Origin: an uncultured Gammaproteobacteria bacterium
GTDB taxonomy: Bacteria; Patescibacteriota; Patescibacteriia; 2-01-FULL-39-33
Length of the DNA stretch: 64,000 bases
Direction of reading: 5' to 3'
Assembly (NCBI GenBank): GCA_964512625.1
Contig: CAZEKG010000001.1
Span: 127,652 to 191,651 of the forward strand
Shown: piece by piece, positions 20,295 through 38,933 of the stretch
How positions within the stretch are numbered: the stretch's first letter is position 1
Layout of the letters: every line of letters starts with the position of its first letter
Notes under the pieces: model-generated
Told to the model about the DNA's origin: nothing
Seen by the model: the letters and a program-made list of their open reading frames with translations, nothing else
Databases searched by the model: none
Position numbers and translations under genes: made by a program

Positions 20295-21395
20295 TTATTT
20301 CCTTCCAATAACGCCGAACTTATGAATATTCTGAACAACTCCCATTAACAGCATGATACTAATTAAAAAGCTACCGCCGTAAGAAACAAAAGGTAAAGGA
20401 ATACCAGTAACCGGCAATAATCCTAGACACATGCCCACATTGATAAAAACTTGAACGAAAATAATCGTTAAGAGCAAAAGACCGACAAACATCCCGAAAT
20501 CATCAGGCGCCCGAACCGAAATCCGATATAGACGATAAAAAATAATGCCAAAGAAAATTAAAAGCATAACAACACCGAAAAAACCCAACTCTTCCGCAAT
20601 AACAGCAAAAATAAAATCTGTCTGACTTTCCGGAATAAATTTCAATTGGCTTTGTGAACCAAATCCCAAACCCCTGCCAAGCACCCTTCCAGCACCGACG
20701 GCAATAATAGATTGGCGGACATTATAACCACTGCCGAGCGGATCAAGAGAAGGATCAATAAAAGTCATAACGCGAGCTTTTTGATAATCCTGGAAAAGAA
20801 AAAACCATGCTCCCACAAAAATAAGGATCAAAGCAATATGCCAATTCTTTTTACTGATAAAAAAGAAGGAGGCAAACCAAATACTAAAAAGCATCATAGC
20901 GGAACCGAAATCAGGCTGTAAAACAACCAAGCCGAGCGGCAAAAAAACTACCAAACCTAAAAGCAAAGTTTGCCAAAGACGATGGACCCTTCTTACGTAC
21001 CGACTGCAAACATCAGCCAATACTAAAATAATCGAGACTTTCATTATTTCAACTGGTTGAAAATTCATAAAACCCAAAGAGAACCAACCTCTCGTTCCTT
21101 TAACTACCGAACCAAGTGGAGTAAGGACTAGTATTAAAAGAATGAGGCTTAATAAATAAATTACCCAACTCCAACGACGCCAATAATGATAATCAATATT
21201 GGAAATTAAAAACATAGCCGTTAAGCCGATCATCGTCCAAATGATTTGTTTTTGAAAATTGATGAATTGACCGGAGCCTTGGCCTAAAGCGACACTATAA
21301 ATAGCGGCTAAACCGAAAAAAACTAAAAACATGCTGGCAATAAATAAAGTCCAGTCAGTTTTTTTAAAGGGATTAAGAAGGGAGTTTAATTGCAT
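20295..21395 (-). CDS. SEDS family peptidoglycan glycosyltransferase (RodA/FtsW-like)
   Basis: Multi-TM protein with the conserved C-terminal LPxxGxxLPFxSYGGS motif. Three-nt gap after the ABC permease gene. Confidence 0.8.
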   Translation of the reverse strand: MQLNSLLNPFKKTDWTLFIASMFLVFFGLAAIYSVALGQGSGQFINFQKQIIWTMIGLTAMFLISNIDYHYWRRWSWVIYLLSLILLILVLTPLGSVVKGTRGWFSLGFMNFQPVEIMKVSIILVLADVCSRYVRRVHRLWQTLLLGLVVFLPLGLVVLQPDFGSAMMLFSIWFASFFFISKKNWHIALILIFVGAWFFLFQDYQKARVMTFIDPSLDPLGSGYNVRQSIIAVGAGRVLGRGLGFGSQSQLKFIPESQTDFIFAVIAEELGFFGVVMLLIFFGIIFYRLYRISVRAPDDFGMFVGLLLLTIIFVQVFINVGMCLGLLPVTGIPLPFVSYGGSFLISIMLLMGVVQNIHKFGVIGRK

Positions 21396-21397
21396 AA

Positions 21398-22645
21398 TTA
21401 TTCGTGTCTTATAGCACTAATCGGATCAAGGCCGGCCGCTTTTTGGGCCGGATAATAACCGAAAATCAGTCCGACGGCGCCACAAAAGCCGAAGGCGATC
21501 AGGATAGAAAGGAATGATAAATTAAAATTCCAAGAAAAGCCGAAATTACCAGCCACTAAACTAATGAGAAAAGAAATAAGAATACCAGCAATAATCCCGA
21601 AGAAACCGCCTAAAAGCGTTACCGCTATCGCTTCAGCCAAGAACTGCCAAAGAATTTGTTTTTTCTTAGCGCCTAAAGCTTTTCTTAAACCGATTTCAAA
21701 AGTTCTCTCCGTAACAGAAACATACATAATATTCATAATACCAACCCCGCCGACTGCTAAAGAAATTCCGGCTAAAGCGACTAACAATAGAGTAATACCG
21801 CCGAAGATGGTATCGATCATTTTCCTTGCCTCCTCCATAGTTGTGACTGCGAAATCGTCATCTTCCGGATTAGTTATACTGTGCCTTTCTCTTAAAAGCT
21901 GGGCTATATCATCAGCTGTTTGATCCTGAATCGCTGGGTTCTTAACTTGGGAAGTAACCATTAAAACATAATCTATGCCCATAATTATTTTTTGAGCTGT
22001 TTGGATAGGCATAAAAAACATATTATCATAGTCAAGGCCAAAACTAGCTCCTCTTTCCTTAAAAACTCCAATGACACGGAATTTATTTTTACCGATTTTA
22101 ATACTTTGACTTATGGGATCCTGATTACCAAAAAGCTTGTCAGCCAACTTACTACCTAAAATGACTACTCGTGCTAATTCATTATCTTCCTCGGGCGTAA
22201 AAAAGCGGCCTTTAACGATTTCTGATTTATCAATATTAATAAAGCCGGGGGAAACGCCAAAAAAATTAGTAGATTTATTTTGATCTTCGTGGGAGACTAC
22301 TTGTTGTCCGATAACGGCCGCATAATAAGCTTTAATATTGGGCAGTCTGCCGATCGCTTCCGCATCGCTTAATTTCAAAGTTGTTATTTGGACTCCCTGA
22401 GCCATACTGCCGGCATTAGCGGTTGAATTCTTACCAGTAGAGGGAACCTTAACTTCGGTTTGAATTAAATTAGAACCAAAGGATTCAACTTGACCGAGCA
22501 CTAAACCCTTTAAGCTTTCTCCGGCTGACATAACGATAATAACCGCCGCAATACCGATCATAATACCTAAAACCGTTAAAAAGGTTCTACTTTTATGCAG
22601 GATCAAGGAATTCCAAGCGATTTTAATGGGAAGAAATATATTCAT
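21398..22645 (-). CDS. ABC transporter permease, FtsX/MacB-like
   Basis: N-terminal TM, MacB periplasmic core domain, C-terminal FtsX 3-TM bundle. Confidence 0.8.
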   Translation of the reverse strand: MNIFLPIKIAWNSLILHKSRTFLTVLGIMIGIAAVIIVMSAGESLKGLVLGQVESFGSNLIQTEVKVPSTGKNSTANAGSMAQGVQITTLKLSDAEAIGRLPNIKAYYAAVIGQQVVSHEDQNKSTNFFGVSPGFINIDKSEIVKGRFFTPEEDNELARVVILGSKLADKLFGNQDPISQSIKIGKNKFRVIGVFKERGASFGLDYDNMFFMPIQTAQKIIMGIDYVLMVTSQVKNPAIQDQTADDIAQLLRERHSITNPEDDDFAVTTMEEARKMIDTIFGGITLLLVALAGISLAVGGVGIMNIMYVSVTERTFEIGLRKALGAKKKQILWQFLAEAIAVTLLGGFFGIIAGILISFLISLVAGNFGFSWNFNLSFLSILIAFGFCGAVGLIFGYYPAQKAAGLDPISAIRHE

Positions 22646-22648
22646 AAA

Positions 22649-23884
22649 TTATTCATATCTTAAAGCCTCGATAGGATCAAGCTTAGAAGCTTTAATAGCC
22701 GGATAAAGACCGAAAATCAAACCAACTAAGAAAGCGACGGCAAAGCCGACTAAAATGGAAATGGGACTAATAACTAAATCCCAATTATAACCGAGATACT
22801 TGGCAACAACCGCCACTAAAACGGAAAAGAGTGAGCCTATGATAATACCAATAATACCACCGACTAAGGTTATAACGATTGACTCAACTACAAACTGCCT
22901 AACAATGTCCGAGGGTTTAGCGCCGACCGCCTTTCTTAAGCCAATTTCCCTAATTCTTTCATTGACTGAAGCCAGCATGATATTCATAACACCAACACCG
23001 CCGACAATAAGAGATATCGCCGCAATCGCCGCTAAAAAGAATTTTAAAGCGTCAGTTATACTAGTTAAAGTATCAATAGCTTCCTTAGTATTTCTGACAC
23101 TAAAATCTTCGGCATCTGCTTCTTTGAGGTTATGGCGATCTCGTAGAAGTAGTCTAATATCATTAGTCGCTTGATCCATCTTGTCGGGAGAAGAAACCTT
23201 GACTCGGATATAATTAATATAATTAACGCCCAACATGATATTTTGGACCGTTGAAACTGGTAATAAGATTATCGTATCCTGATTCTGGAAGCCGGCCACG
23301 CCTCTTTTATTCATAACTCCGATAACTTCAAAAAATTCTTTCTTGATTTTTATTTTCTTACCAATCGGATCCTGGCCGTTAAAAAGGTTCTGCCAAGTCT
23401 CATAGCCTAAAACTGCGACGCGAGCATTATTGCGCTCTTCCTCGGCCGTAAAAAAACGACCAGACATGACCTTCGACTCCTCAACATCAACATAGCCACT
23501 CATCACGCCGTAATAATTGCCATCACTGGAATTATTTTGATAAGTCGATTTAGCGATGCCAGTATTGTAAGAAGAAACAGCGGCAATATTTTGGATTTGC
23601 TCGCCAATAGCTCGAGCATCCTCATACTTCAGGGTTGTTATAACGATGCCAAGGGCCGAAGCCGGCGGACCATTACTGTCTGAGGCGCCAGGCAAAATAC
23701 CGATTAAGTTAGTCCCGACTGAATTAAGCTGATTGATTATAAGACTTTGCGCTCCAGCACCGACTGAGATAATAATAATAACCGCGGCAATACCGATAAC
23801 GATTCCCAAGCTAGTTAAAAAACTGCGAACTTTATTAGCTCGCAAAATAGAAAAAGATAGTTTTATGGTCTCAGATAGTCTCAT
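22649..23884 (-). CDS. ABC transporter permease, FtsX/MacB-like (paralog)
   Basis: Same architecture as the neighbouring permease. Confidence 0.8.
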   Translation of the reverse strand: MRLSETIKLSFSILRANKVRSFLTSLGIVIGIAAVIIIISVGAGAQSLIINQLNSVGTNLIGILPGASDSNGPPASALGIVITTLKYEDARAIGEQIQNIAAVSSYNTGIAKSTYQNNSSDGNYYGVMSGYVDVEESKVMSGRFFTAEEERNNARVAVLGYETWQNLFNGQDPIGKKIKIKKEFFEVIGVMNKRGVAGFQNQDTIILLPVSTVQNIMLGVNYINYIRVKVSSPDKMDQATNDIRLLLRDRHNLKEADAEDFSVRNTKEAIDTLTSITDALKFFLAAIAAISLIVGGVGVMNIMLASVNERIREIGLRKAVGAKPSDIVRQFVVESIVITLVGGIIGIIIGSLFSVLVAVVAKYLGYNWDLVISPISILVGFAVAFLVGLIFGLYPAIKASKLDPIEALRYE

Positions 23885-23940
23885 CCCGGTTTATAAAGAT
23901 TCTTAAATAGCGGCCATTTTAATACTTAAAAAAATGGAAA

Positions 23941-24660
23941 TTATTTCATCAATTCCTCCCCGTCTTTAGCTGAGCGACGATTACTTACTCGATCATCATT
24001 ACAAATAAGGCCATCGCACATCTTGATTATTCTCTTAGCATGGCGCGCTGTATCACTTTCATGAGTAACAAGAATAATGGTCTTACCCTTATCATTCAAT
24101 TCCTCAAGGATTTCCATAATGGCATTGCCGGACTTACTATCCAAGTTACCGGTCGGCTCATCAGCGAAAATAAGTGACGGGTTGTTTACTAAAGCGCGGG
24201 CAATCGCGACTCGCTGCTTTTCACCGCCGGAAAGCTGATTGGAAAAATTATTAATACGATGATTAAGGCCGACCGCTTCAATAGCGCTAAGAACGGCCTG
24301 ATGCTGATCCTTCCGTTTACTGTACAATAAAGGCAGTCTAACATTCTCGTAAACCGTAGTTTTCGGTAAAAGATTAAAAGCTTGAAAAACAAAGCCGACT
24401 TCCTCGTTTCTTATTTGAGCTAACTGATTATCATCAAGATTACTAACATCCTTATCTTTAAAAAGATAAGTTCCGCTAGTTAGAACATCAAGAAAACCAA
24501 GAATATGCATCAAGGTTGACTTACCTGATCCCGAAGGACCCATAATAGCTAAAAATTCTCCCGCCTCAACCTTGAAATTAAGGCCGAAAAGAACGTTGGT
24601 CACTAATTCTTCGTTGACATAATCCTTCTTTAAGTCGCGGACTTCTATAAGAGTAGACAT
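23941..24660 (-). CDS. ABC transporter ATP-binding protein (MacB/LolD-type)
   Basis: Walker [10 protein letters not shown], signature LSGGEKQR, Walker B IFADEPT. Confidence 0.9.
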
Positions 24661-24683
24661 GATAATTTTCTTAAGCTAGTAAT

Positions 24684-26444
24684 TTAGGGAGTGGCAGCGC
24701 CCTTTGTAAAAGTAACCACCTTTTCTCCTTCGCTCAAGCCGGAAGTAATTTCAACTAAGCCATTATCCGCTCTTAAGCCGGTCGTAACGATTTTTTCTAC
24801 CGCCTGGCCGTTCTCTAAGACCTGGACATATTTAACCGGATTCTCGCCTAAAGCCGTATCCTTAAGTCTAACTGCTCTTTGAGCGATATATAAAACATCT
24901 TGCTTTTCGTTAGTAACTAAAGTCACATCAGCCGTCATGCCTGGCTTTACTTGTTCGATAAAAGAATCCTCGTTAAAAATAACCGTCGTTTTATAATAAG
25001 TGACATCCTGAATAACCGTTTGAGCCGGATCGATAAAAGTGACGCTGCCGGAAAAAAGATGATCATTGCCGAAAGCATCAAGATTAATAACCGCTTTATC
25101 GCCGATTTTTATCTTAGTGACATCGGACTCCGGGATATCGACTTTAATCTGATATTTTAAATCGCTTTGCATTTGAATGACCGACTGAGACATACTAGTT
25201 TGTTCGCCAAGATTGAAATTTACTTTATTGACTCGGCCGTCGATCGGGGCTTTAATCGAGTAATCGTTAAGATTGGCAAAAAGCGCGTCTAGTTGAGCTT
25301 GGGCCTGCGCCACATTAGCTTCAGCCGAAGCTAAATCGAAACTTCTCGGACCGGCCTTTTTCAAAGCCAATTGAGCTTGGGCGATAGAAAGAGCATCGGA
25401 AGCCGCCTTGATTTGAGAATCGTAAGTGTTTGTCGTATTGATAACACTGCCGGGATAAGTGGCGATCGCGGAATTAAGATTGGCTCGCGCCGTTTGCAGC
25501 GAAGAAATGGAAGTATTGACTGCCGTTTGCTGGCCGCTGATATCCGATTTAATCGAGCTGATAGTAGCTTGAGGATAATTGGAATTTTCAATGATACTAT
25601 TGGCTAAATCATAAGAATCATTAAGTAAGGTCAATAAAGTATTCAAGAAATTTTTAGCATTGTCCGCTACTTTCATTAAATCACCATTAGTAGTTCCTGA
25701 ATTTATGGAGCCGACCTGTTTCTTAATCTCTAAAAAACTGTCTATGGTTATATTGTAATTATTATCAACCCGATTCTTTAAGCCGATATTGGAAACTTGC
25801 ATGTTTTGATTCTTTGAAGTATCGACTAGCTTATCATTGATCTTATTAAGAGCGACTTGAGCGACGGAAATACTACTATTTAAATAATTGATATTGCTGT
25901 CCCTTAGATTACTGACCTGTTCATTATAATCGCTCTGCATAGTCGCTAACTTATCCTGTTTTTGAGTGATTAGATTGTTCAAATCATTCTGAGCTTTATT
26001 TACCTGCTCCTCATAAACTTGTATATCTTCGGAACCGGCGCCAGCCTTAACCTTTTGATAATTAGCAACCGCCGAACTGACATTCGCTTGAGCCTGTTTT
26101 ACCTGAGCGCTTAAACTAGCAGAATCAATCCGAGCTAAAACTTGTCCAGCCTTAACGATTTGACCCTCTTTAGCATCAAGAAAAACCAGCTTGCCCGGAG
26201 ACTTAAAATTCAAAGAGATATCTTCCGACGGCTCGACTGAACCGGTAGCTGAAACAGTTTGAGTCAAACTGCCTTTTTTAACATCTTCCGTCGTATACTG
26301 GACCGTCGGCTTCTTATTCAACAAACTAAAAACAACCGCTCCAATTATAATAATTAGAAGAGCTATCAGGCCCCAAAACCATTTTTTCTTAAAAATCTTT
26401 TTCATAAAATATGATAAATTATGGATTATAAAAACCATTTTCAC
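24684..26444 (-). CDS. periplasmic adaptor (membrane fusion protein, HlyD/MacA family) with an extended coiled-coil
   Basis: N-terminal TM, barrel-sandwich/lipoyl motifs, and a very long Q/N/A-rich coiled-coil hairpin; 586 aa. Confidence 0.75.
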   Translation of the reverse strand: MKMVFIIHNLSYFMKKIFKKKWFWGLIALLIIIIGAVVFSLLNKKPTVQYTTEDVKKGSLTQTVSATGSVEPSEDISLNFKSPGKLVFLDAKEGQIVKAGQVLARIDSASLSAQVKQAQANVSSAVANYQKVKAGAGSEDIQVYEEQVNKAQNDLNNLITQKQDKLATMQSDYNEQVSNLRDSNINYLNSSISVAQVALNKINDKLVDTSKNQNMQVSNIGLKNRVDNNYNITIDSFLEIKKQVGSINSGTTNGDLMKVADNAKNFLNTLLTLLNDSYDLANSIIENSNYPQATISSIKSDISGQQTAVNTSISSLQTARANLNSAIATYPGSVINTTNTYDSQIKAASDALSIAQAQLALKKAGPRSFDLASAEANVAQAQAQLDALFANLNDYSIKAPIDGRVNKVNFNLGEQTSMSQSVIQMQSDLKYQIKVDIPESDVTKIKIGDKAVINLDAFGNDHLFSGSVTFIDPAQTVIQDVTYYKTTVIFNEDSFIEQVKPGMTADVTLVTNEKQDVLYIAQRAVRLKDTALGENPVKYVQVLENGQAVEKIVTTGLRADNGLVEITSGLSEGEKVVTFTKGAATP

Positions 26445-26536
26445 TCACTATAATATAACATAAATAGAAATCAAAGTCCATAAAAAAACAAGCCGTCATT
26501 CGGCCTGTAATCTCGTTCATTATTCTTAAAAAAATG

Positions 26537-27445
26537 CTAAGAAAAAATCAGCATATACCAAAGCATTAGAGAGATAATAAAAGCTGCCAGCTTATACTGC
26601 CAATTACGGGTTAAAATAGCATGCCAAGAAGCGTTAGCTCGGCTTAAATCGACATTTTCCTTAATAAATTTATTAATCACTTCTTCGAGGATCTTCATAT
26701 CGTTTATCTTCTTAAGCTTACCCTCGGAAGCTAAAGAAATAGTTCCGCGCTCCTCGGAGACGATAATCGCTAAAGCGTCAGTCGCTTCCGTTATTCCCGC
26801 GCCGGCCCGATGCCTTGTTCCGACGCTCTCATATTTATCAAACTTAAGCGCCAAAGGAAGATGAACGCCGAATTTTTTAATTCGATTGTTTTCAATAATA
26901 ATCGCCCCGTCATGGCCCGGAGACGAAGGATCAAAGATGCTTAAAAAAAGCGGAACCGAAATCTTGCCCTCAAGATTAATTCCACCTTCAATAAACCCTT
27001 CCAGGGGCTGTTCCCCCGGCAAGACGATAAGGGCTCCGAACTTCCTTTTACTTAATTCAATGATAGCCTCATACATTTTTTGAGCCGCTTCCGAAGAAAC
27101 TATCTTTTTCCTATTGGCGGCTAAGCGATGGCCGGCGGCAGAAAACCATTCAAAAAACTTCCTAATATCCCTTTGGAAAACTACGACTAAAACGACCATG
27201 AAGAAAGTTAAAAACGGCCTGAAAAGAGTTTGTGTCAATTTAAAATCTATCGCCTCAGCAAAATAATTAAGTCCGATAAAGCCGAAAAAGATATAAAGGA
27301 CGAAATAAAACCTGGTTCGTTTGATAAAAACCATAACCACATAAATAACTGCCGCTACGACAAAAACATCGACAAAATCCTTCAGCTTCATGATACTGAA
27401 AATATTAAGCAGGAATAAGGGTAAGTTTTCCAATAAAGCCAGCAT
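26537..27445 (-). CDS. cdaA: diadenylate cyclase CdaA (c-di-AMP synthase)
   Basis: Three N-terminal TM helices and a DAC domain with the DGA(III) and GTRHRA motifs. Confidence 0.85.
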   Translation of the reverse strand: MLALLENLPLFLLNIFSIMKLKDFVDVFVVAAVIYVVMVFIKRTRFYFVLYIFFGFIGLNYFAEAIDFKLTQTLFRPFLTFFMVVLVVVFQRDIRKFFEWFSAAGHRLAANRKKIVSSEAAQKMYEAIIELSKRKFGALIVLPGEQPLEGFIEGGINLEGKISVPLFLSIFDPSSPGHDGAIIIENNRIKKFGVHLPLALKFDKYESVGTRHRAGAGITEATDALAIIVSEERGTISLASEGKLKKINDMKILEEVINKFIKENVDLSRANASWHAILTRNWQYKLAAFIISLMLWYMLIFS

Positions 27446-27457
27446 GAAAATTAAAAA

Positions 27458-27958
27458 TTAATTAAGGATTACTGGCATTAAACCGCCAACAATTATAAAA
27501 ATTACAAAAAAAACATACTTAAAAATTCTTTCAGCTGCCGTAGACGGCTCATGAATGACATTAATGATCGAATAACAAAGCATTAATAAGATAGTTGCTA
27601 TAAAATAAGCCAAAGCAACCTCATGATACATGGAATTAGTCATTAGTCCGACAGCATTAAAAACAAAAATATTACCTAAAGTATTAGTAATCCAACCTAA
27701 ATAATCCCAAGTCTTCGTTTCTCTCCAATAACCTATCTTAGAATAAGCTAAAGTAGAAACATAAAGTAACGGTATGGCTAAGACTAGCTGGAAGATCATT
27801 ACTTGACTAACTCTTTCAGGACTTAAAGTTAAAGCGAGAGTTAAAATAAAAAATAAACTCCCCATCATAAAGGAATTGATAGCGACTTTAGAAGCCGCTT
27901 TTTCCGGATTAGTCCTAAAGACTTCTTTTTTCGGTTTTCTTTTCTTAAATATCCTCAT
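27458..27958 (-). CDS. hypothetical integral membrane protein
   Basis: 166-aa ORF with about four hydrophobic helices. Confidence 0.5.
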   Translation of the reverse strand: MRIFKKRKPKKEVFRTNPEKAASKVAINSFMMGSLFFILTLALTLSPERVSQVMIFQLVLAIPLLYVSTLAYSKIGYWRETKTWDYLGWITNTLGNIFVFNAVGLMTNSMYHEVALAYFIATILLMLCYSIINVIHEPSTAAERIFKYVFFVIFIIVGGLMPVILN

Positions 27959-28081
27959 AAATATATTTTAACCTAAAATAAAATGTTTTAAAAGCATTAG
28001 GTTGACAAATTAAAATTAAAAGGTAATATTTAGATTGCCTTAACTCTTATATAATGTCACCACAAGGAAGGAGAGCTGGTC

Positions 28082-28582
28082 ATGATCCCTAGGTACTTTT
28101 TCGAGAAGGTCCTGAAGAACGGAATCGAGATCGATTTCGTCGAAGTAGTCCTTGATCCCGAAATCGCAGCAGAAATGCTCATCTTTGGAGCCAATTTCCA
28201 AATCGTTGAAAGAGGACACTTCGATTCAAGAGAACGTCTCTTGTCATTTGAGCACTTTCCGAAAGATGCTCAAAACCCAAGACGTATCGCCCTCGTCCGG
28301 TTCAAGACCGAAGTCAAGCCCGGAGAAGATGTCCTTCCTATCTTTAAGGAGTTTAACATCACTCCCGCAACCCTGATCGATATCCTAACTATCAATCTCC
28401 AACACCCCGGAGTAGTTGATGAATCCCCAATCGTCGCGCTCGGCGATATGAAGCAAGTCGGCGGCGAAAAGCACGCCCCAGCAATCAGCGGTAAAAGCGA
28501 CTGCCGATATCTCAATATGATGTTCTGCCTGGATGATGTTCCACGCAACGTCCGCTACGCCGGAGTCATTACCTGCTACTAA
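28082..28582 (+). CDS. hypothetical protein, GC-rich orphan ORF (cassette c, gene 1)
   Basis: 166-aa ORF with ~48% GC. Preceded by TTGACA at ~28004 and TATAAT at ~28054; RBS AGGAGA. Confidence 0.5.
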   Translation: MIPRYFFEKVLKNGIEIDFVEVVLDPEIAAEMLIFGANFQIVERGHFDSRERLLSFEHFPKDAQNPRRIALVRFKTEVKPGEDVLPIFKEFNITPATLIDILTINLQHPGVVDESPIVALGDMKQVGGEKHAPAISGKSDCRYLNMMFCLDDVPRNVRYAGVITCY

Positions 28583-28585
28583 GCC

Positions 28586-28611
28586 AACCCCGCAAAGCCG
28601 GGGTTTTTATT
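28586..28611 (+). terminator. rho-independent terminator
   Basis: CCCCG-CAAAGC-CGGGG followed by TTTTT. Confidence 0.65.
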
Positions 28612-28653
28612 TTAAGAAAAATAAAAAGCGCCAAACGTATTACGCGCTTGACG

Positions 28654-30309
28654 CTAGACAGTCGCAACGACAGCGGCAACTCTTTCGAGGTAGCCGTCCT
28701 CGTCAACACGCAGTTGCTTAGAATCGATAAGACGGTTAATGGCCGACTGAATAGCCTTGACCATCAAACCATCCTTCATATTCAAAGGCAACGCGTAGCC
28801 TTCGAGGTTTCTTGCCTGCCTTAAACGGTTTACCACCTCGCCTCTCTTGAGATATACCTTGTCAGCCGAGGCTCGATCGATAATCTGTAAGACAGCCGCT
28901 TGCCAATCCTCCGGCGAATCAATGAGCTTCCGGCCGTCTTGGTAGAATTTACCTTTAGCCGAACCTTTATCGTAGAAGGACCTATTAATGGCGTCCTTCC
29001 CCGACTGAGGGCCTCGAGCTATCCTTTCGTCATCCAAGACGACAAGGTAGTTTTCCTTTTCCAAGGCGACTAACTCATTACGAAGATGATTCTCGACATT
29101 AGTATCAGAGAAAGTCGAGATATCATAGCTGAAGTAAGGAGCTGAAGATTTCGCTTTCTCCGTCACTCCCTCAAAAGTCAGGGTGTAGCCGGACTTCTCA
29201 AGAATACCCAACAAGATCTTTTGCCAATCTTCACTGGCAACAGGATACTTCAAAGGACCTTGAGGTGGCGCCGGACCGTGATTCTTTTCACGCCCCTGGG
29301 GATTTCTTCGCCCCGAGGCATCATCATCAGAGCCATCCTCGGCAGTTACGTATTCGCCGACAATACTCCTTAGCTTCTCGCGTCCCTTGGTGGTCAAATC
29401 GTAACAACCAGTAACAGGATCGCGTCTCAGCAGTTCCGCCTTACTCGAACCGTAGTTGAGCTGTTGAGTTATCGTCTTATTATCGAAACGTGGGTTGGCT
29501 TTCAGTGCTCGAGTGATATCATCGCGACTCATCGGACCCCGAGTAAAAACAGTAAGCAACTGATCGATAAGCTTCCCGGATTTCCCGGTCTTGGCTCGCC
29601 GATGAGATGCTTGCAATTGCGCCAAACGATCTTCGCGGTTAACTGACCGGCCATTGCCGGATTCAGCCTTTTCTTCCCGCAATTGAGCCTGGAGCTGTTG
29701 TTTGCACGTAACCTTCTGAGCGCTATCGACGGCTCCCGATTCAGCTCCTGTCTCTTCCGCCCGATGCCACTTGCGGTCAGTCCTACCGATACGACCGCTT
29801 TTTTTCAGTTTCAAAAGAGCCTGATAAACAGCGCCTTCGCTGTTCCCAACCTCTGAAGCAACTTCTTTAGTCGTAAACCCGCGTTTCGGTCCGCGACGGC
29901 TGACAATCTCGACGAGCTTATCTGATTTATCGTTCCGCTGTCCGCCCTTCGGCTTTTGGTTTGTAGCCGTTTCCTTGGAAACAGCCCGCCCATTGCCTTT
30001 CGAATCCGAGGTAGCTTTTTCCGGCAATTCAAGAATCTCTAAATCTCCTCTCGACTGAGAAGGAAGCAAGGCAAGATTTTCCTGCGCCTTCCTGGTAATA
30101 GCTTCGGCCTGCGCCGAAAGCTTCCCGGCATTTTCGATCTGCTTCCGATTTAGATCGTGAACCAAATCAAAAAACCTGCCGGTAAAATCCTTCCGATCCT
30201 CCTCGCTCAGACCCGTCTCCGGATCAATGCTGTGAACATCGGAAACCAAGACTGCCCCATCCTTTGGAAGAACAACCGCCAAGAAATTGCTTATTACCTG
30301 ACTTTCCAT
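28654..30309 (-). CDS. hypothetical protein with several winged-helix-like repeats, GC-rich orphan ORF (cassette c, gene 2)
   Basis: 551 aa with ~52% GC. Three or four segments have wHTH-like periodicity, separated by charged low-complexity linkers. Confidence 0.5.
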   Translation of the reverse strand: MESQVISNFLAVVLPKDGAVLVSDVHSIDPETGLSEEDRKDFTGRFFDLVHDLNRKQIENAGKLSAQAEAITRKAQENLALLPSQSRGDLEILELPEKATSDSKGNGRAVSKETATNQKPKGGQRNDKSDKLVEIVSRRGPKRGFTTKEVASEVGNSEGAVYQALLKLKKSGRIGRTDRKWHRAEETGAESGAVDSAQKVTCKQQLQAQLREEKAESGNGRSVNREDRLAQLQASHRRAKTGKSGKLIDQLLTVFTRGPMSRDDITRALKANPRFDNKTITQQLNYGSSKAELLRRDPVTGCYDLTTKGREKLRSIVGEYVTAEDGSDDDASGRRNPQGREKNHGPAPPQGPLKYPVASEDWQKILLGILEKSGYTLTFEGVTEKAKSSAPYFSYDISTFSDTNVENHLRNELVALEKENYLVVLDDERIARGPQSGKDAINRSFYDKGSAKGKFYQDGRKLIDSPEDWQAAVLQIIDRASADKVYLKRGEVVNRLRQARNLEGYALPLNMKDGLMVKAIQSAINRLIDSKQLRVDEDGYLERVAAVVATV

Positions 30310-30447
30310 GACCTACCCCTTTTAACCGTTCCCACCCTAAAAACACAAGAAAACTGATTTATTTCAAGCGCCTAATTCGACGCTACTTTTTAAGTACGAC
30401 TCACTAATTCAGTTTAATAACAATCGCCTATTTAAGTCAAATTAAAA

Positions 30448-30470
30448 ACACCCATAAAGGTGTTTTTAAT
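30448..30470 (-). terminator. terminator downstream of tRNA-Glu
   Basis: ACACC-N5-GGTGT with a T-run on the minus strand. Confidence 0.5.
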
Positions 30471-30477
30471 TTCTTTG

Positions 30478-30549
30478 TAGCCCCACGGAGAATCGAACTC
30501 CGGTTCTCGCCTTGAGAAGGCGGTGTCCTAGCCACTAGACGATGAGGCC
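30478..30549 (-). tRNA. tRNA-Glu (anticodon CTC)
   Basis: Manual cloverleaf: acceptor GGCCTCA/TGGGGCT (two G-U pairs), D-arm GTCT/GGAC, anticodon loop TTCTCAA, T-arm CGGAG-TTCGATT-CTCCG, discriminator A; no encoded CCA. Confidence 0.75.
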
Positions 30550-30627
30550 GAATAAAATAACATTGTCAACATTATACATATATATTATAATAAAATCAAG
30601 TCTAACTAAATAATGGGAGGTAATAAT

Positions 30628-31203
30628 ATGGAAAAAATAGATTTGGGCGCTTTCGCCAAGGGCATAACCATTGCCGTCATCATGCTCATAGTCGGCCTAT
30701 GCCTTTTTGGCTGGGGCTTAAGTATCGGCTTATCAAGTCCGAAAGCCGCTAACAATAGCTGCCTTAAAGAAGCGGCAAAAAAAGTCGAAGATTCCAATCT
30801 TTTTATCATGGACAAGCAACCGCTTAATGCCATAACAGGTAAAATAACAAAAATAGAAAACGGCAAGCTTTACTTAGAAGCAGCTAATCTCATGCAAAAT
30901 CCCCTAGCCGAATCAACTCCGAAAGAGAGGGCGATTAATTACGACGATACGATAAAAATCTCCTTGCAGCAAAATAAATCACCCGAGACGATGAATGCTG
31001 ACATGGCTAAGTTCAATAAAGAGATGGCGGCCTTTTCCAAAGATCCGAAAATCGCTCCTCCTATGCCTCCCATGCCTTTTGAAATAAAAACCATCAGTCC
31101 TTCCGAATTAAAAACCGGAGTTAGCGTAATGATTATGTCTTCTGAAGACATAAGATACGCCAAAGAAGTAAAAGCCAGCGAAATAAGAATCATCAATCCT
31201 TAA
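30628..31203 (+). CDS. hypothetical membrane-anchored protein with proline-rich segment
   Basis: The start was set at the ATG after GGGAGG (30615-30620). N-terminal TM; PPMPPMP motif. Confidence 0.5.
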   Translation: MEKIDLGAFAKGITIAVIMLIVGLCLFGWGLSIGLSSPKAANNSCLKEAAKKVEDSNLFIMDKQPLNAITGKITKIENGKLYLEAANLMQNPLAESTPKERAINYDDTIKISLQQNKSPETMNADMAKFNKEMAAFSKDPKIAPPMPPMPFEIKTISPSELKTGVSVMIMSSEDIRYAKEVKASEIRIINP

Positions 31204-31213
31204 GCTTATAAAT

Positions 31214-31250
31214 AAAAAACTCCGAAACACTTCGGGGTTTTTTTATTCGC
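31214..31250 (+). terminator. rho-independent terminator
   Basis: CTCCGAA-ACAC-TTCGGGG followed by T7. Confidence 0.6.
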
Positions 31251-31257
31251 ATTTATT

Positions 31258-31310
31258 TTTGTATCTGTATTTGTATTTGTATTTGCGTTAGTATTTGCGA
31301 GCGTTAAAAA
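31258..31310. repeat. GTATTT hexamer tandem repeat ending in the 20-mer GTATTTGCGAGCGTTAAAAA (copy A)
   Basis: tgtatt x4-5, then the 20-mer at 31291-31310, which is identical to 41885-41904. Confidence 0.6.
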
Positions 31311-31856
31311 TCAAAACTTATAAACGAAAATCCGATTAAGCTCCGTATTATCCTGATTAGTAATAACCACCTTATCCGCCTGCCTCCTCTTAAGAGCAAA
31401 CCCGTAAGTAACAACCCTGCTGCCAGGCTTCATTTCCTTAACAAACTTATCGTGAAGCTTATCCATGGTTTCGGGAAATAGATAGCAAAAAACGATATCC
31501 GCTTTCGAAAGATCCGCTTTATACATATTAGAAAAATGAACTTCTGTTTTTTTATAACGCCCATACCAAAGATTAAAAATCGCCATTAAGTAAGGCCAAA
31601 CAGAAATTTCATACCCGATACCCCTGGTATTATAATTCTTTTCCGCATAAGTCAGTAAATGGGCTTTACCGCAACCAAGATCATAAATCAACTCATTGGG
31701 CTTAGCCTCAACCGCCTCCATAATCGCCTTAAAATCCTTATTGGATGTTGAAATAAAAGGAATGCCTTCTGCCGCAATCATACCGATAACAATGAGCGAA
31801 GCGATAATCGCCGCCAATACCGACAAGATGAGCATTAAGAAAAGAATGTAGATCAT
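31311..31856 (-). CDS. class I SAM-dependent methyltransferase with N-terminal TM helix
   Basis: LIYDLGCGKA motif I. Confidence 0.65.
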   Translation of the reverse strand: MIYILFLMLILSVLAAIIASLIVIGMIAAEGIPFISTSNKDFKAIMEAVEAKPNELIYDLGCGKAHLLTYAEKNYNTRGIGYEISVWPYLMAIFNLWYGRYKKTEVHFSNMYKADLSKADIVFCYLFPETMDKLHDKFVKEMKPGSRVVTYGFALKRRQADKVVITNQDNTELNRIFVYKF

Positions 31857-31920
31857 AATAAGTCTTAAGTTATAATAACTGACTGAATTATAACAATTTT
31901 TAGGCTATTTTACATCCCCC

Positions 31921-31949
31921 TTGACAATTATCAAAAAAATCGATAAAAT
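31921..31949 (+). promoter_or_regulatory. sigma70-like promoter TTGACA-17-TAAAAT for rpmE-prfA
   Basis: Hexamers at 31921-31926 and 31944-31949. Confidence 0.45.
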
Positions 31950-32000
31950 ACGCATATTGGTTACAGTAATTGGCCAAATACTTAAATAAGACAATAAATT

Positions 32001-32294
32001 ATGAAAAAAGATATCCATCCGGAATATTACTCAGACTCTAAGGTTACCTGCGCTTGTGGCAATACCTTTACTGTTGGTTCAACCTTAAAAGCCATAAATA
32101 CTGAAATGTGCTCTGCTTGCCATCCTTTCTATTCAGGCAAACAAAAATTAGTAGATACCGCTAGACGCGTCGATAAATTCCAAAAGAGAGTCGCCGCTCA
32201 AGAAGGTTCTGCCGCCACTCGAAAAGGCAAGAAAGTTAAGAAGGAAAAGTTAAAAATCATCAAAGAGACTAAAAAAGCTAAGACCGAAAAATAG
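32001..32294 (+). CDS. rpmE: 50S ribosomal protein L31 (zinc-ribbon type) with Lys-rich C-terminal extension
   Basis: MKKDIHPEY start and CxC...CxxC zinc site. 97 aa against the usual ~70. Confidence 0.85.
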
Positions 32295-32300
32295 CTTAAA

Positions 32301-32347
32301 TAAAATAAAAAGAACCCTTAAGGCATAAGATGCGTGGGTTCTTTTTA
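32301..32347 (+). terminator. rho-independent terminator after rpmE
   Basis: AGAACCC...GGGTTCT followed by TTTTTATTT. Confidence 0.5.
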
Positions 32348-32385
32348 TTTAAAGCCGTTTAAAAACTATTCCTTTTAACTTAAGG

Positions 32386-33471
32386 ATGGCCTATAATGTA
32401 ATTATGAGAGAAAAACTAGCCAAACTGCAATTAAGATTCGAAGAATTGGAACGCCTGCTTCAGGACGAGTCCATTGTTTCTAATCCGGAAAAAAGCAAGA
32501 AAATCGCCCAGGAATATGATGACCTTAAGGAAGTTATTGAGGCGAATAAGAAACTTAATAAAGTTGAGAGCGATCTGATTGAAATAGATAAGATGCTTGA
32601 AGATAATAAAGATGATGAGGAATTGAAAGCCATAACCGAGGAAGAGAAAAAAGCCCTTATCGAACAACAAAACGAATTAGAAAAAGAAATTCGGACTTTA
32701 CTGATCCCGAAGGATCCGGCCGATAAAAAAAATGTCATTATGGAAATAAGAGCCGGCGCCGGAGGCGACGAATCGGCTTTATTTTCAGCTGAGCTTTTCC
32801 GCATGTATTCCCGCTTTGCCGAAAAAAAGAATTGGAAAGTATCCCTAATCTCTTCTAATAAGATCGGCATCGGCGGTTTTAAAGAAGTTATTTTTGAAGT
32901 AAAGGGCAAAGATATTTACGGCTTGATGAAATATGAAAGTGGCGTCCACCGAGTCCAGCGAGTGCCGGAAACGGAGAAAAAAGGCCGCGTCCATACCTCA
33001 ACAGTGACTGTCGCCGTTATTCCGGAAATAGAAGATGTCGATATTAAAATCGACCCGAAAGACTTAAGAATCGATACCTTCTGTGCTGGAGGCCATGGTG
33101 GACAATCAGTCAATACGACTTATTCGGCGGTTCGCATAACCCATATCCCGACCAACTTAGTCGTTAACTGCCAAGACGAAAGATCTCAGCTCCAAAATAG
33201 AGAAAAAGCTATGATGGTTCTTCGCTCCCGGCTTTGGGCCCTAAGAAGAGAAGAAGAGGAAAAGAAGCTGAGCGCCGAGAGAAAATCCCAAATCGGAACG
33301 GGCGACCGCAGCGAAAAAATCAGAACTTATAACTTCCCTCAAGATCGCATTACTGATCATCGAGTCAATCTTAACTTCAATAACATTCCGGTCATCCTTG
33401 ACGGCGAAATAGAAGAGATAATCAAAGCCGTTAAAGAACATTACGATAACCTGCAAATCGTCGCTGATTAA
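32386..33471 (+). CDS. prfA: peptide chain release factor 1
   Basis: GGQ motif ([11 protein letters not shown]). The RF1-type codon-recognition loop [13 protein letters not shown] carries PET where PAT/PVT is expected. Exact start codon uncertain. Confidence 0.85.
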
Positions 33472-33508
33472 AAAATACTCCCTAACCGGAGTATTTTTTA
33501 TTTTAAGT

Positions 33509-34342
33509 CTATTTAACTATTTTCTTATTCTTTTTACCTGGCAAAAAATTCTCTTTAGAGACAACCGGCCTTCCAAGTTTGCGTTCAATTTGCTTCCTAG
33601 CCGATCCGGCGATTTGGCCGCCCGACCTGGCGTCGTCCTTTAGCCTTGGCAAGCCTTCTGATTCATTTTTACGATGTATTTCCGTCGTCGTCTGCTCTCC
33701 CAGCATAGTCAGAATTAATTCCAGATCATTCATATGATCTCTAAGATTTTCTCTCTTCAATCCTTTAATTTTTTTATACTCAGACGGTATAACGCCAAAA
33801 GTCGCCTTAGATATCTCAGCGGTCAAGATTTCATAATCCTTTTGCCTTTCCGCTCCTCGTTTATCCCATTCGTCCGTCAGCTCATTGCGAACAGCAATTC
33901 CTCGCATTCTTTTTTCTATCCAATTATCCGGGTAACCCTTTAACTTATAAAGTGTCTTAGCGCGTTTTGAGGCCAATTCCGGGTCTTCGATTTCCTTAAT
34001 TCTTTCATAGCCGACTTTAGCCAGCCAGCGTTTAAGTGGCTCAGCTTTAGGCGATGGAATTGACTGGATAATACGAAATAAGCCTTCTGTATTGGCGCAA
34101 TCGGTTTCTCGCATTTTGCCATCTTCGGCTGTCATTTTCAACTGTTCCCAAAATGGGAACGGTTGAGACATATCTTTATCTCTTTCTTTCATTTTAGCCC
34201 AATATGTCTTCGGCTGTGGACTATCAGTCAAAATGGCGATAATATCTAAAATAGAAAACCACCATTCTTTATGAAAAATGGTCTTTCTAATTGCATTGCC
34301 TTTAAAAATTGCAACTTGGTTAATTATCTCCTTATTATCCAT
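33509..34342 (-). CDS. DinD-like protein (Bro-N domain, DNA-damage-inducible protein D family)
   Basis: N-terminal Bro-N-like region. The C-terminal region KGLKRENLRDHMNDLELILTMLGEQTTTEIHRK parallels E. coli DinD KGLKKNQKILDHMGSTELAANLFRATQTEEKLKR. Own TTGCCG-17-TATAAT promoter. Confidence 0.55.
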   Translation of the reverse strand: MDNKEIINQVAIFKGNAIRKTIFHKEWWFSILDIIAILTDSPQPKTYWAKMKERDKDMSQPFPFWEQLKMTAEDGKMRETDCANTEGLFRIIQSIPSPKAEPLKRWLAKVGYERIKEIEDPELASKRAKTLYKLKGYPDNWIEKRMRGIAVRNELTDEWDKRGAERQKDYEILTAEISKATFGVIPSEYKKIKGLKRENLRDHMNDLELILTMLGEQTTTEIHRKNESEGLPRLKDDARSGGQIAGSARKQIERKLGRPVVSKENFLPGKKNKKIVK

Positions 34343-34440
34343 ACTAATGAATTATTACTCTTTGAGGTTAATTATACTCCTAAAGAATAACCTCGGCAAA
34401 GCCTATCAAATGGACCTGAATTTTTAATTTGACGCATATA

Positions 34441-34472
34441 AAAAACTCAGTTGTCGACAACTGAGTTTTTTA
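34441..34472. terminator. bidirectional terminator
   Basis: Perfect hairpin CTCAGTTG-TCGA-CAACTGAG flanked by A6 and T6. Confidence 0.65.
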
Positions 34473-34547
34473 TTTACCCAAAAGGAATAATTTCTTATTT
34501 TTTTAAACTACCAAATATATTAGTCTGTAAAATATCCTATACTTATA

Positions 34548-34928
34548 CTACTCTGCTTTTTTTCTAGCAGTGATATATATAGTATAGACACCAGTGTCCG
34601 TTCGGTCAATTTTATGATACATAATTATTCCCATTTCTTCCAGTTGTTTATATAGGGAACTCATTTTATCGAATTTTTCTTCAATAACCTTACGATTTTC
34701 ATCGAAATATATAATAGCTCGATCTCCATCATATAAACTACTATAAACTGCCCACAATAAATTTTCCTCTTCTCTACTGAGTCCATCCCATTGTTTTATA
34801 AGATCACGAGCAGTAGGAAGCTTTAGCATTTCATTGATTAATTCCTGTCTTCTTTCAAGTACTTCTTGATTTTTTTTACCTTCCCCTTCAGTTTGGCTAT
34901 TTATTCTTTGTTCCGGTGATTTTGGCAT
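34548..34928 (-). CDS. hypothetical protein (orphan ORF in AT-rich low-coding region)
   Basis: 126-aa ORF; local GC ~32%, lower than the background. Confidence 0.4.
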   Translation of the reverse strand: MPKSPEQRINSQTEGEGKKNQEVLERRQELINEMLKLPTARDLIKQWDGLSREEENLLWAVYSSLYDGDRAIIYFDENRKVIEEKFDKMSSLYKQLEEMGIIMYHKIDRTDTGVYTIYITARKKAE

Positions 34929-35143
34929 AAAATTACAATAATATTTAAAATAATGATGCCTTTATTGTACCTCCCCCCGACAGGTTTTGGCAAATTTTTT
35001 TATCCACAGGCATTGATTTATTGACCTTCTGAGGCTGTATTCGTATCGGATTTGCGCCATTGATAAATATTGTGCCAACTTATTTATAAGGAGCCTGCCT
35101 ACCGGCAGGCAGGCATGATTTCGATCGGCGCGACTTTTTTTGT

Positions 35144-35170
35144 AATACTTTTTTTCTAGAAAAAAGTATT
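35144..35170. repeat. near-perfect 27-bp palindrome AATACTTTTTTT-CTAG-AAAAAAGTATT
   Basis: Read directly from the sequence; centred on CTAG with one-nt asymmetry in the homopolymer run. Confidence 0.6.
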
Positions 35171-35253
35171 AGGTATAAAAAAATAATGCAAGGGATTCCT
35201 CCACTCAGATGATTATATCCTCAGTCGGAATAACAATGCGGGATGACGAACAC

Positions 35254-35298
35254 AAAAAAAATACGCTCCTGCAATTACAAGAGCGTGTTTTTTTATTT
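35254..35298 (-). terminator. terminator downstream of murF
   Basis: ACGCTC-N12-GAGCGT flanked by A8 and T7. Confidence 0.55.
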
Positions 35299-35324
35299 TG
35301 CTTTTTAAATTTTAAACTTATCCC

Positions 35325-36608
35325 TTACTTCCCCTGCCAGAACTTATCAAACCTAACTAACAATTCTTCCGCTCTTAAAGGCTCAGCCATAATTTCCTTA
35401 ACGATTTTTTCCATTCTCGCCCCTTGAGAACCCTTAACAAGGATATAATCACCCTTATTTATCCTGCCTTGAACGAAAATCCCAGCCTCTTCGCGATCGG
35501 AAAAAGTAAATACCCTATCCCTATTCATGCCAAGACTTAAAGCTTTATCAGCAATAATCGCGGCTCTATCTCCAACCGTAATCAAATAATCAATTTTATT
35601 TTCTACGATTTTCTTACCGACTAATTCATGGCCCTCCCTAGTAAAATCACCAAGCTCCAACATATCGCCTAGGACTGCGTATTTATAAGTCTCCGTTTCA
35701 ATCCTACCTAAAACATCAACAGCCGCCGCCATCGAATCGGGCGAAGCATTATAGGTATCATCAATAATATATGTACCTTTAATGCCACTAATTAAATTCA
35801 TACGTCCGCTGGGCGCCTTGAATTGCTTTAAGGCCGTAGCTATTTCAACCATATTCATTTCAAAAATAATCCCAATCGCCGAAGCCGCCAAAGCAGCATA
35901 AACTAAATGCTCCCCTAAAATATTAGGCAAAAGAACCGGAACAGCGCTGCCATTATAAATCATTTTAAAACTTAGGCCTGATAAACCACCTAATTCGCCA
36001 TGAGAAAGACTGACTTCAACCGCTTTAATATCGGCTTCGTTTTTTATGCCGTAAGTTAAGCATCTACCTTTAGCCAAGCTAACCATGCTCTCCGTATATT
36101 GATTATCGTTATTTAAAACTGCCCAACCGTTCCGATCGATATGGGAAATAACAATAGCCTTTTCTTTAGCTATTCTCTCTAAGGTTCCAAAATGTTCAAG
36201 GTGAACAGGACCAATATTAGTTACCACTCCAACATAACAATTAACCAAATCAGTTAGATACTTCATATCGCCTTTCCGATCAACTCCCATTTCCAAAACT
36301 AAGATATCAGGATAATTTTTATCCTTAAAAATCATTAAGCTGACGGCTTTAATAAAGACTTTAGCCCAGCTGATAAGCGAACGGCCGCCAGAACCGGCAC
36401 CGATAATAGTCAAAGGCAAACCTATTTCATTATTATAGTTCTTGATATTGCGTCTGACTTTCAGCTTTGAGGCTAAAACGGCATAAATCGCCTCTTTAGT
36501 TGAGGTTTTACCCACACTACCGGTAATACCAACAACCTTCGGCTCATACCTTTTAAGGATAGCCGAGGCTAATAAAAACAAGATTTTTTTAAGGATTTTC
36601 CTGCCCAT
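35325..36608 (-). CDS. murF: UDP-N-acetylmuramoyl-tripeptide--D-alanyl-D-alanine ligase MurF
   Basis: Mur ligase P-loop GITGSVGKTSTKE and the three-domain architecture. Confidence 0.85.
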   Translation of the reverse strand: MGRKILKKILFLLASAILKRYEPKVVGITGSVGKTSTKEAIYAVLASKLKVRRNIKNYNNEIGLPLTIIGAGSGGRSLISWAKVFIKAVSLMIFKDKNYPDILVLEMGVDRKGDMKYLTDLVNCYVGVVTNIGPVHLEHFGTLERIAKEKAIVISHIDRNGWAVLNNDNQYTESMVSLAKGRCLTYGIKNEADIKAVEVSLSHGELGGLSGLSFKMIYNGSAVPVLLPNILGEHLVYAALAASAIGIIFEMNMVEIATALKQFKAPSGRMNLISGIKGTYIIDDTYNASPDSMAAAVDVLGRIETETYKYAVLGDMLELGDFTREGHELVGKKIVENKIDYLITVGDRAAIIADKALSLGMNRDRVFTFSDREEAGIFVQGRINKGDYILVKGSQGARMEKIVKEIMAEPLRAEELLVRFDKFWQGK

Positions 36609-38526: not shown

Positions 38527-38529
38527 ATT

Positions 38530-38904: not shown

Positions 38905-38933
38905 GGAAAGAAGATACTTCGCGATTTAATATT

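Follow-up and report, generated by a model that had tools for sequence, protein, structure and literature searches.

A GC-rich gene pair beside a tRNA-Glu gene in a Patescibacteria genome: a putative accessory islet encoding a multi-winged-helix protein

In a 64,000-nt stretch of contig CAZEKG010000001.1 (assembly GCA_964512625.1), hereafter the window, two convergent genes encoding proteins of 166 and 551 amino acids (aa) are bounded by a host membrane-protein gene on one side and by the tRNA-Glu(CUC) terminator on the other. We give somewhat better than even chances to the explanation that the segment from ~27959 to ~30440 was acquired horizontally as a small accessory islet that lacks an integrase, and that its 551-aa product is a DNA-binding regulator or nucleoid-type protein. 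At ~2.4 kb, it looks like an ordinary kind of object, neither a replicon nor an integrase-driven island, and it agrees with the genomic islands and single transferred genes, exchanged mostly among Patescibacteria, that account for up to 13% of genome length in this group (PMC12455944). In a scan of GTDB genome contigs, prfA of the window was 69 to 73% identical to homologs in metagenome-assembled genomes (MAGs) labeled Candidatus Buchananbacteria or Patescibacteria, which, as judged from this gene, identifies the host as a Patescibacteria bacterium (candidate phyla radiation, CPR) near Ca. Buchananbacteria.

Layout, composition, and strain divergence of the islet

The 166-aa open reading frame (ORF) extends over 28082-28582(+) and the 551-aa ORF over 28654-30309(-). 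They converge on a 71-nt spacer holding two terminator-like hairpins, one per strand: the intrinsic terminator of the 166-aa gene at 28586-28605(+), with a stem AACCCCG...CGGGGTT followed by a T-run, and that of the 551-aa gene at 28655-28627(-), with an 11-pair stem followed by TTTTTATTTTT. A promoter scan placed a promoter-like TTGACA-16-TAATAT at 28002-28029 in the AT-rich intergenic leader of the 166-aa gene (27959-28081, plus strand), and a strong Shine-Dalgarno (SD) sequence, AAGGAAGGAGAG, follows at 28064-28075. An initial reading of this locus, made from the sequence alone (the sequence-only reading), had credited the 166-aa gene with a clean terminator, which is present, and with a TTGACA/TATAAT promoter, which has to be withdrawn: the TTGACA at 28002-28007 and the TATAAT at 28050-28055 are 42 nt apart and therefore cannot make up one promoter. 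Upstream of the 551-aa gene are a promoter-like TTGACT-18-TAAACT at 30440-30411(-), a consensus match only (9 of 12 positions), and an SD-like sequence, AAGGGGTAGG. With a promoter-like site, an SD, and a terminator for each gene, the pair would be transcribed convergently as two independent units.

In 100-nt steps, a GC-rich block reaches from ~28050 to ~30330, with 45 to 59% GC vs. 20 to 37% just outside. The 166-aa gene has a GC content of 0.487 (0.563 at third codon positions [GC3] and 0.323 at second positions [GC2]) and the 551-aa gene one of 0.502 (GC3, 0.518), against medians over 61 ORFs of the window of 0.403 for GC (standard deviation, 0.045) and 0.409 for GC3 (standard deviation, 0.069). 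Both genes lie ~2 standard deviations above the window in GC and GC3; they are outliers, not extreme ones. The sequence-only reading had described a GC-rich, convergent, and compositionally foreign pair beside tRNA-Glu, and the coordinates, the composition (GC, 0.49 to 0.50 vs. 0.40; GC3, 0.52 to 0.56 vs. 0.41), and the tRNA calls by ARAGORN and Rfam all agree with that description.

A second strain is represented by a single 1,192-bp Logan contig (L070; SRR30164235), which aligns to window positions 27313-28504 at 97.6% identity. Its host part (the 5′ end of CdaA and the membrane-protein gene) carries 26 differences in 646 nt (4.0%), mostly synonymous; the membrane-protein gene itself is 3.8% diverged, with 14 synonymous and 4 nonsynonymous codon changes. 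From 27959 onward (leader plus 423 nt of the 166-aa gene), only 3 differences occur in 546 nt, all within 6 nt; the 123-nt leader (27959-28081) is free of them, and the 166-aa product has 2 amino-acid changes. Divergence falls ~7-fold at the islet edge, and the break coincides with the host-gene start codon (Fisher P = 8e-5; Poisson P for at most 3 differences given 22 expected, 6e-7). This break sets the left boundary at ~27959, so that the AT-rich promoter leader counts as part of the islet, and it indicates an islet history decoupled from that of the flank, i.e., acquisition or exchange after the strains split. As far as sequence comparison goes, the three clustered differences in the left 546 bp of the islet, set against ~4% in the host DNA, point to recent spread. 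For ultra-small episymbiotic bacteria, the break would then provide a modest but clear-cut case of an islet spreading recently with no recombinase involved. Look-ups of flanking-gene clusters for the right junction in a second strain returned L070, which spans the left junction, and L071, which runs from rpmE to the methyltransferase gene; neither reaches the tRNA. Three of the four nonsynonymous changes in the membrane-protein gene fall in codons 2 to 9 (27934-27954), adjoining the left boundary of the islet.

On the right, an intact tRNA-Glu gene (anticodon CUC) occupies 30477-30549(-) (ARAGORN; Rfam RF00005, 54.2 bits) and is the sole match of the Rfam scan. Just 3′ of it, at 30439-30472(-), an inverted repeat forms a perfect 14-bp hairpin (100% complementary, 6-nt loop) that is likely the tRNA terminator and, coming directly after the tRNA, insulates it from the islet. 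A further ~130 nt of AT-rich DNA separate this hairpin from the 551-aa start codon, and GC-rich DNA begins ~150 nt from the tRNA 3′ end. With this terminator and AT-rich stretch in between, the GC-rich block is not in contact with the tRNA 3′ end; the block lies downstream of the tRNA, as the sequence-only reading had stated, but not directly so.

That reading had also regarded the site as a classical tRNA island target, while finding neither an integrase nor a duplicated tRNA 3′ segment. Both absences were reproduced. Pfam scans of all ORFs of at least 100 aa in 20295-39842 detected no integrase, transposase, or recombinase within ~8 kb, and a repeat search (seed 8) and blastn-short (word 7) over 27300-30400 found neither the tRNA 3′ end nor any other part of the tRNA repeated, the sole tRNA matches of at least 10 nt being AT-rich AAATTAAAA strings (E = 0.34). 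What makes tRNA genes classical island targets is the action of a tyrosine integrase on attachment (att) sites; since this mechanism is absent here, the proposal keeps its position and foreign composition but loses its mechanistic basis, and it appears weak. The islet resembles tRNA-targeting integrative islands in lying downstream of a tRNA gene and in its foreign composition. Unlike them, it has no tyrosine integrase and no duplicated tRNA segment (the attL/attR repeats of the tRNA 3′ end), shows a tRNA terminator and ~130 nt of AT-rich DNA before its first gene, and is only 2.4 kb long. The islet probably entered, and later spread between strains, when incoming DNA recombined, for instance after transformation or during gene flow from strain to strain; site-specific integration would not have been the route.

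Winged-helix modules of the 551-aa protein

Structure modeling suggests that the 551-aa protein most likely consists of four winged-helix (WH)-type modules and binds DNA. The AlphaFold2 (AF2) model, computed with an alignment of the protein and its relatives (A1), has a mean predicted local distance difference test (pLDDT) score of 58 and a predicted template modeling score (pTM) of 0.26; it is confident locally only, with low-confidence regions at aa 83-126 and 176-346. A long N-terminal helix (aa 36-81; pLDDT, 70 to 82) is followed by a basic winged helix-turn-helix (wHTH1; aa ~125-190; net charge, +6; pLDDT, 62 to 76 for aa 127-175), a second, weakly supported basic module (wHTH2; aa ~240-325; net charge, +5; pLDDT, <50), an acidic/Pro linker between wHTH2 and WH3 (pLDDT, <50 in linkers), and the modules WH3 (aa ~350-436; net charge, -5; pLDDT, 83 to 92) and WH4 (aa ~458-548; net charge, +1; pLDDT, 70 to 92 as 10-residue block means). 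The predicted secondary structure of aa 359-432 and 466-543 is H-H-H-E-E (pLDDT, 70 to 92), and hhalign of the corresponding sub-alignments identified WH3 and WH4 as an internal duplication (93.5% probability; E = 2.4e-7). Neither is basic: their charge is acidic to neutral, and most relatives have a strongly acidic WH4. Foldseek searches of the PDB returned winged-helix domains only, including cullin WHB, the N-terminal domain of DtxR/IdeR, Rpa2-WH, and E2F/DP, with single-WH matches at a probability of ~1.0, target template modeling (TM) scores of 0.6 to 0.77, and root mean square deviations (rmsd) of 2.4 to 3.7 Å. The confident WH3/WH4 models and the exclusively winged-helix matches bear out the multi-winged-helix architecture put forward by the sequence-only reading.

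Sequence evidence for the first module is transitive. Over 51 aa, wHTH1 is 37% identical to the repeat unit of a repeat-HTH protein (P0009), and this repeat matches HTH_23 (1.8e-23), Sigma70_r4_2, and HTH_38 at 1e-17 to 1e-23; the likeness thus links wHTH1 to HTH domains by homology. The segment first quoted as wHTH-like (aa 127-175, modeled at the pLDDT of 62 to 76 given above) is covered by this match to an HTH repeat with Pfam matches at ≤1e-20. The protein itself has no match above threshold in Pfam, NCBIfam, PHROGs, or PADLOC, its profile found nothing below E = 0.17 among PDB sequences, the model gave nothing specific against BFVD, and no enzymatic domain was detected. PADLOC contributed a single weak match, to a CARF model on the wHTH (E = 0.032).

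Among known systems, wHTH regulators (PadR, TrmB, MarR, and the DtxR N-terminal domain) resemble the protein in the subthreshold PadR, TrmB, and HTH_24 matches at aa 144-181 of wHTH1 and in the three-helix core of this module, which matches DtxR and other WH domains in Foldseek and has a basic surface. The protein differs from these regulators in combining four WH-type modules, a long N-terminal helix, and disordered acidic/Pro linkers in a 551-aa chain, in lacking their ligand-binding and dimerization domains, and in Pfam scores below gathering thresholds. With tandem-WH proteins (kite proteins ScpB/MukE/JetB, YceH/DUF480, the SelB C terminus, and Stn1/RPA32), it shares a homologous, nonbasic pair, WH3+WH4, and Foldseek aligned 150 to 210 columns to YceH-like, MukE, JetB, SelB, and Stn1 chains. 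These longer alignments had E values of 0.01 to 0.2 and rmsd of >10 Å (for the kite proteins MukE and JetB, E = 0.09 to 0.17 and rmsd of >15 Å), individual domains alone match, and neither an SMC/kleisin or EF-Tu context nor sequence similarity in the PDB profile search accompanies them; no kleisin or SMC gene lies near the family gene in any of its five contexts. All structural matches are generic WH, with query-normalized TM scores of ≤0.13.

The sequence-only reading had compared this architecture with replication initiators and partition proteins. On such an account, the pair would be the remnant of an integrated plasmid or phage, with the 551-aa protein as its replication initiator or its partition/centromere-binding protein. 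Foreign composition suits a remnant of this kind, multi-WH architectures are common to RepA/RepE-type initiators and some partition adaptors, and Foldseek listed a phage RepA-like initiator at rank 21 (E = 0.13) besides the tandem-WH matches to MukE, JetB, YceH, and SelB (E, 0.01 to 0.2). Specific evidence points the other way: Rep_3, RepA, ParB, and ParA are not matched in Pfam, NCBIfam, or PHROGs; the PDB profile search returned no Rep protein; no iterons and no tandem or direct repeats of at least 12 nt were found beyond chance in 27400-31300; tblastn of either protein against 50,697 phage and 72,556 plasmid records gave no match; and scans of IMG/VR viral contigs with P0001, the 166-aa protein, and alignment A2 revealed no relatives. 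The five family contexts contain no other mobile-element gene except one LAGLIDADG homing endonuclease, and the structural matches are the generic ones just described. For a partition system, a ParA/ParM NTPase is also missing, the neighbors being CdaA, the membrane protein, the tRNA, the methyltransferase, rpmE, and prfA. We consider a replicon remnant very improbable and have set it aside, together with the classical tRNA-island account, as unsupported, with the accessory islet as the concrete alternative in their place.

In the working model of the islet, the basic modules wHTH1 and wHTH2 would contact DNA, HTH homology being shown for wHTH1; the long N-terminal helix may mediate self-association; and the homologous, neutral-to-acidic WH3 and WH4 probably serve as protein-contact modules. 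More speculatively, the protein may repress its own promoter through a spaced inverted repeat, AAACTGATTTA/TAATTCAGTTT, whose 11-nt arms (30351-30361 and 30405-30415) lie 43 nt apart and overlap the -10 region and 5′ leader of the 551-aa gene. On sequence grounds, this repeat is a marginal candidate operator. The equivalent upstream position in P0004, a relative, is also occupied by an inverted repeat (15 nt, 41-nt spacer), which none of 200 shuffles matched.

The 12-mer TACGACTCACTA at 30396-30407(+), in the interval from the 551-aa start codon to the tRNA, has exactly the sequence of the T7 class III promoter core. The full 18-nt consensus (30394-30413) has 5 mismatches at this site, and nothing in the window comes within 3 mismatches of it; the core match is probably due to chance, and the candidate was dropped.

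Distribution of the 551-aa family and origin of the islet

At 90% identity, both proteins are singletons in a collection of ~15 billion (5.8 billion sequences in the word-indexed search), and both were seen only on a single 284-kb NCBI contig; an exact look-up of the 551-aa protein in the contig index returned no record. Word-indexed searches with both proteins and with profile A1 recovered only the query itself, a weak negative since the profile missed the members of A1. An exhaustive phmmer scan over 1.84 billion cluster representatives uncovered six distant relatives of the 551-aa protein (P0003 to P0008; 241 to 617 aa; E = 1.4e-8 to 1.7e-4; ~27 to 30% identity), along with P0009, which matches aa 143-211 only. 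In A1, the six relatives are colinear with the 551-aa protein over its full length: an N-terminal motif DPxTMLTxxQ...F.GL..FC is followed by a pair of HTH-type modules, a linker rich in Pro and acidic residues in which a PP is invariant, a highly recognizable DW..L....W.LTFE.L module, and a second module, W..AVL..I. A metagenome scan with alignment A2 added one orthologue, L073, which is 75% identical to P0004. The family is very rare, undescribed, and found only in Patescibacteria-like contigs. It is missing from Pfam, NCBIfam, PHROGs, and PADLOC; its architecture is now defined, and although undescribed, it is built from a well-known fold.

The relatives occupy five unrelated housekeeping loci on Patescibacteria-like contigs. 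In L001, the family gene has a response regulator and a GC-rich 137-aa orphan on one side and a GT4/ATP-synthase cluster on the other; in L004, Pro_CA_2/response regulator genes lie on one side and tRNA-Ser and a LAGLIDADG gene on the other. In the P0005 contigs it adjoins dnaJ-dnaK, in L006 it is flanked by Cu-oxidase_4 and an ABC transporter, and L007 is a short contig. At all five loci with readable DNA, the family gene is GC-richer than the rest of its contig (window, 0.50 vs. 0.40; L001, 0.47 vs. 0.43; L004, 0.54 vs. 0.35; L006, 0.47 vs. 0.33; L007, 0.39 vs. 0.27), and GC3 exceeds that of the neighbors at four of the five loci read, with z-scores of +3.4 in L004 and +4.0 in L006. The L073 gene has 50 to 60% GC vs. 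33 to 36% in its flanks and abuts tRNA-Ser genes. No conserved partner gene accompanies the family across its loci. By these sequence criteria, the 551-aa family behaves as horizontally moving cargo, i.e., as stand-alone genes at different loci that are mostly GC-richer than their surroundings. The islet is like those described in Patescibacteria (PMC12455944) in being a short atypical block of accessory genes among core genes, in a group where transfer appears to be mostly internal; unlike them, it displays a sharp divergence discontinuity between two strains and carries a recurrent, undescribed family whose GC content exceeds that of the surrounding DNA in several hosts. Strains of the relatives offer no comparable divergence contrast, since within each of the sets L001/L002/L003 and L004/L005 the contigs are 99.98% identical and represent one strain.

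Some variation was noted at these loci. In L004, a LAGLIDADG homing-endonuclease gene lies between two tRNA-Ser genes, one of them inverted, beside the P0004 gene (11894-14057), whereas in L073 the two tRNA-Ser genes are in tandem without an endonuclease (1961-3023); the difference is a local rearrangement associated with the homing endonuclease. L004 also contains a look-alike of the studied arrangement, a 535-aa gene downstream of tRNA-Glu(UUC), which proved unrelated to the 551-aa family. The 137-aa orphan upstream of P0003 (L001, 5894-6307(+)) is the strongest GC3 outlier of its contig (GC, 0.53; GC3, 0.58), and the P0003 islet may thus be a two-gene block with a different passenger.

Several points weigh against horizontal acquisition and a DNA-binding role. 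The GC excess within the window amounts to only ~2 standard deviations, and GC1 and GC2 are partly lifted by an amino-acid composition rich in Gly, Ala, Arg, Pro, Asp, and Glu. The L001 member has native GC3 (z = -0.7). P0004 and L073 occupy the same tRNA-Ser locus on two related contigs, which resembles vertical inheritance and implies some vertical persistence. The strain comparison covers the left 546 nt of the islet on one 1.2-kb contig, and a recombination tract unrelated to acquisition would yield the same divergence pattern. No empty site was found, the nearest GTDB genomes (those with prfA at 69 to 73%) lacking synteny here, so that the insertion is inferred from composition and divergence rather than observed directly. 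As for the protein, all its Pfam wHTH matches are subthreshold (the best, PadR, at 17.4 bits vs. a cutoff of 27), wHTH2 is poorly modeled (pLDDT, <50), no DNA target was identified, and the repeat at 30351-30415 is marginal, as 12 of 200 shuffles give equal arm length.

Part of this evidence would also fit a native, fast-evolving, lineage-specific gene pair that owes its GC content to a charged, Gly/Ala/Arg/Pro-rich DNA-binding protein and its place beside the tRNA to coincidence. The lack of an integrase, att site, or other mobile-element gene, the raised GC1 and GC2 in every family member, the native GC3 in L001, the synteny of P0004 and L073 at 75% amino-acid identity, and the confinement of the family to Patescibacteria-like contexts are all compatible with it. 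Yet GC3, which is free of amino-acid constraint, is raised as well (0.52 to 0.56 vs. the median of 0.41 here, besides the L004 and L006 outliers at +3.4 and +4.0); the unrelated 166-aa neighbor has the same GC bias; strain divergence drops ~7-fold exactly at the islet edge; and family members sit at five unrelated loci. We therefore rate a native pair as unlikely, if the most credible of the alternatives.

The 166-aa gene is best accommodated in the islet as an unrelated orphan passenger. Its product has no Pfam, PHROG, PADLOC, or NCBIfam match above threshold, is predicted to be alpha/beta, and gave a poor single-sequence AF2 model (pLDDT, 50) with no Foldseek match in the PDB below E = 0.35. 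If the convergent pair were instead a toxin-antitoxin (TA) or anti-phage defense system, the role of sensor or regulator would fall to the WH protein and that of effector to the 166-aa protein. Small foreign islets with orphans and HTH regulators are typical of defense and TA loci, a weak PHROG likeness to Ren-like exclusion proteins was detected (E = 0.016), and the window holds other small GC-rich orphan cassettes. Against such a system, PADLOC gave no significant match, no enzymatic domain was detected, the genes are separate convergent transcription units rather than an operon, and no homolog of the 166-aa protein stands beside any other family member, the small neighbors of the relatives being unrelated to it (BLASTP E ≥ 0.5). 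These neighbors and the other GC-rich orphans of the window show no mutual similarity either. The pattern suggests that the two genes never travel together, and we judge a conflict system very improbable, a shade more so than a replicon remnant.

The slim chance given to a defense or TA pair applies equally to a bolder proposal, namely, that the 551-aa family marks an unrecognized, integrase-less mobile cassette of one or two genes that circulates among Patescibacteria from a GC-richer pool. The multi-WH protein itself might then promote establishment or retention of the cassette, e.g., by binding its own flanks or by silencing and organizing host DNA. This would explain the stand-alone, GC-rich recurrence of the family, the two of five loci that abut tRNA genes, and the several GC-rich cassettes of the window.

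Surrounding genes and other GC-rich blocks of the window

The islet is flanked by core genes for a MacB/FtsX-HlyD ABC exporter, CdaA, a small membrane protein, a methyltransferase, rpmE, and prfA, with genes for a Bro-N protein, a Mur ligase, a penicillin-binding protein (PBP), FtsL, and MraW further on. The nearest GTDB relatives arrange rpmE-prfA and the MacB operon differently. In the Buchananbacteria relatives (L009 to L017), the MacB/FtsX-ABC-HlyD operon lies 4 to 6 kb downstream of rpmE-prfA on the opposite strand, whereas in the window (21398-33471) the same operon is upstream of rpmE-prfA, with CdaA, the islet, and tRNA-Glu in between; the differing order puts the islet within a rearrangement junction specific to the lineage. 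CdaA, the membrane-protein gene, tRNA-Glu, and a 196-aa gene were not found in the fetched loci of these relatives.

Just downstream of prfA, a gene of native GC content at 33509-34342(-) encodes a Bro-N domain protein of 277 aa, with a full-length match to phrog_15286 (E = 7e-88) and a weak match to the anti-repressor Ant. The gene may derive from a phage and have become domesticated in the chromosome.

At least four further short GC-rich blocks (GC, 0.50 to 0.54; GC3, 0.50 to 0.60) stand singly among genes of ~40% GC in the window. The block at 9334-9825 holds a 134-aa orphan (9421-9825, minus strand); that at 10994-12031 encodes a 345-aa fusion of dUTPase and dCMP-deaminase with strong PHROG nucleotide-metabolism matches; that at 41039-41692 encodes a 217-aa orphan; and that at 59001-59560 contains an overlapping pair of 113 and 73 aa. 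Each apparently has its own AT-rich leader and terminator, and at 90% identity every one is a singleton. These blocks and the studied islet jointly account for ~8% of the window.

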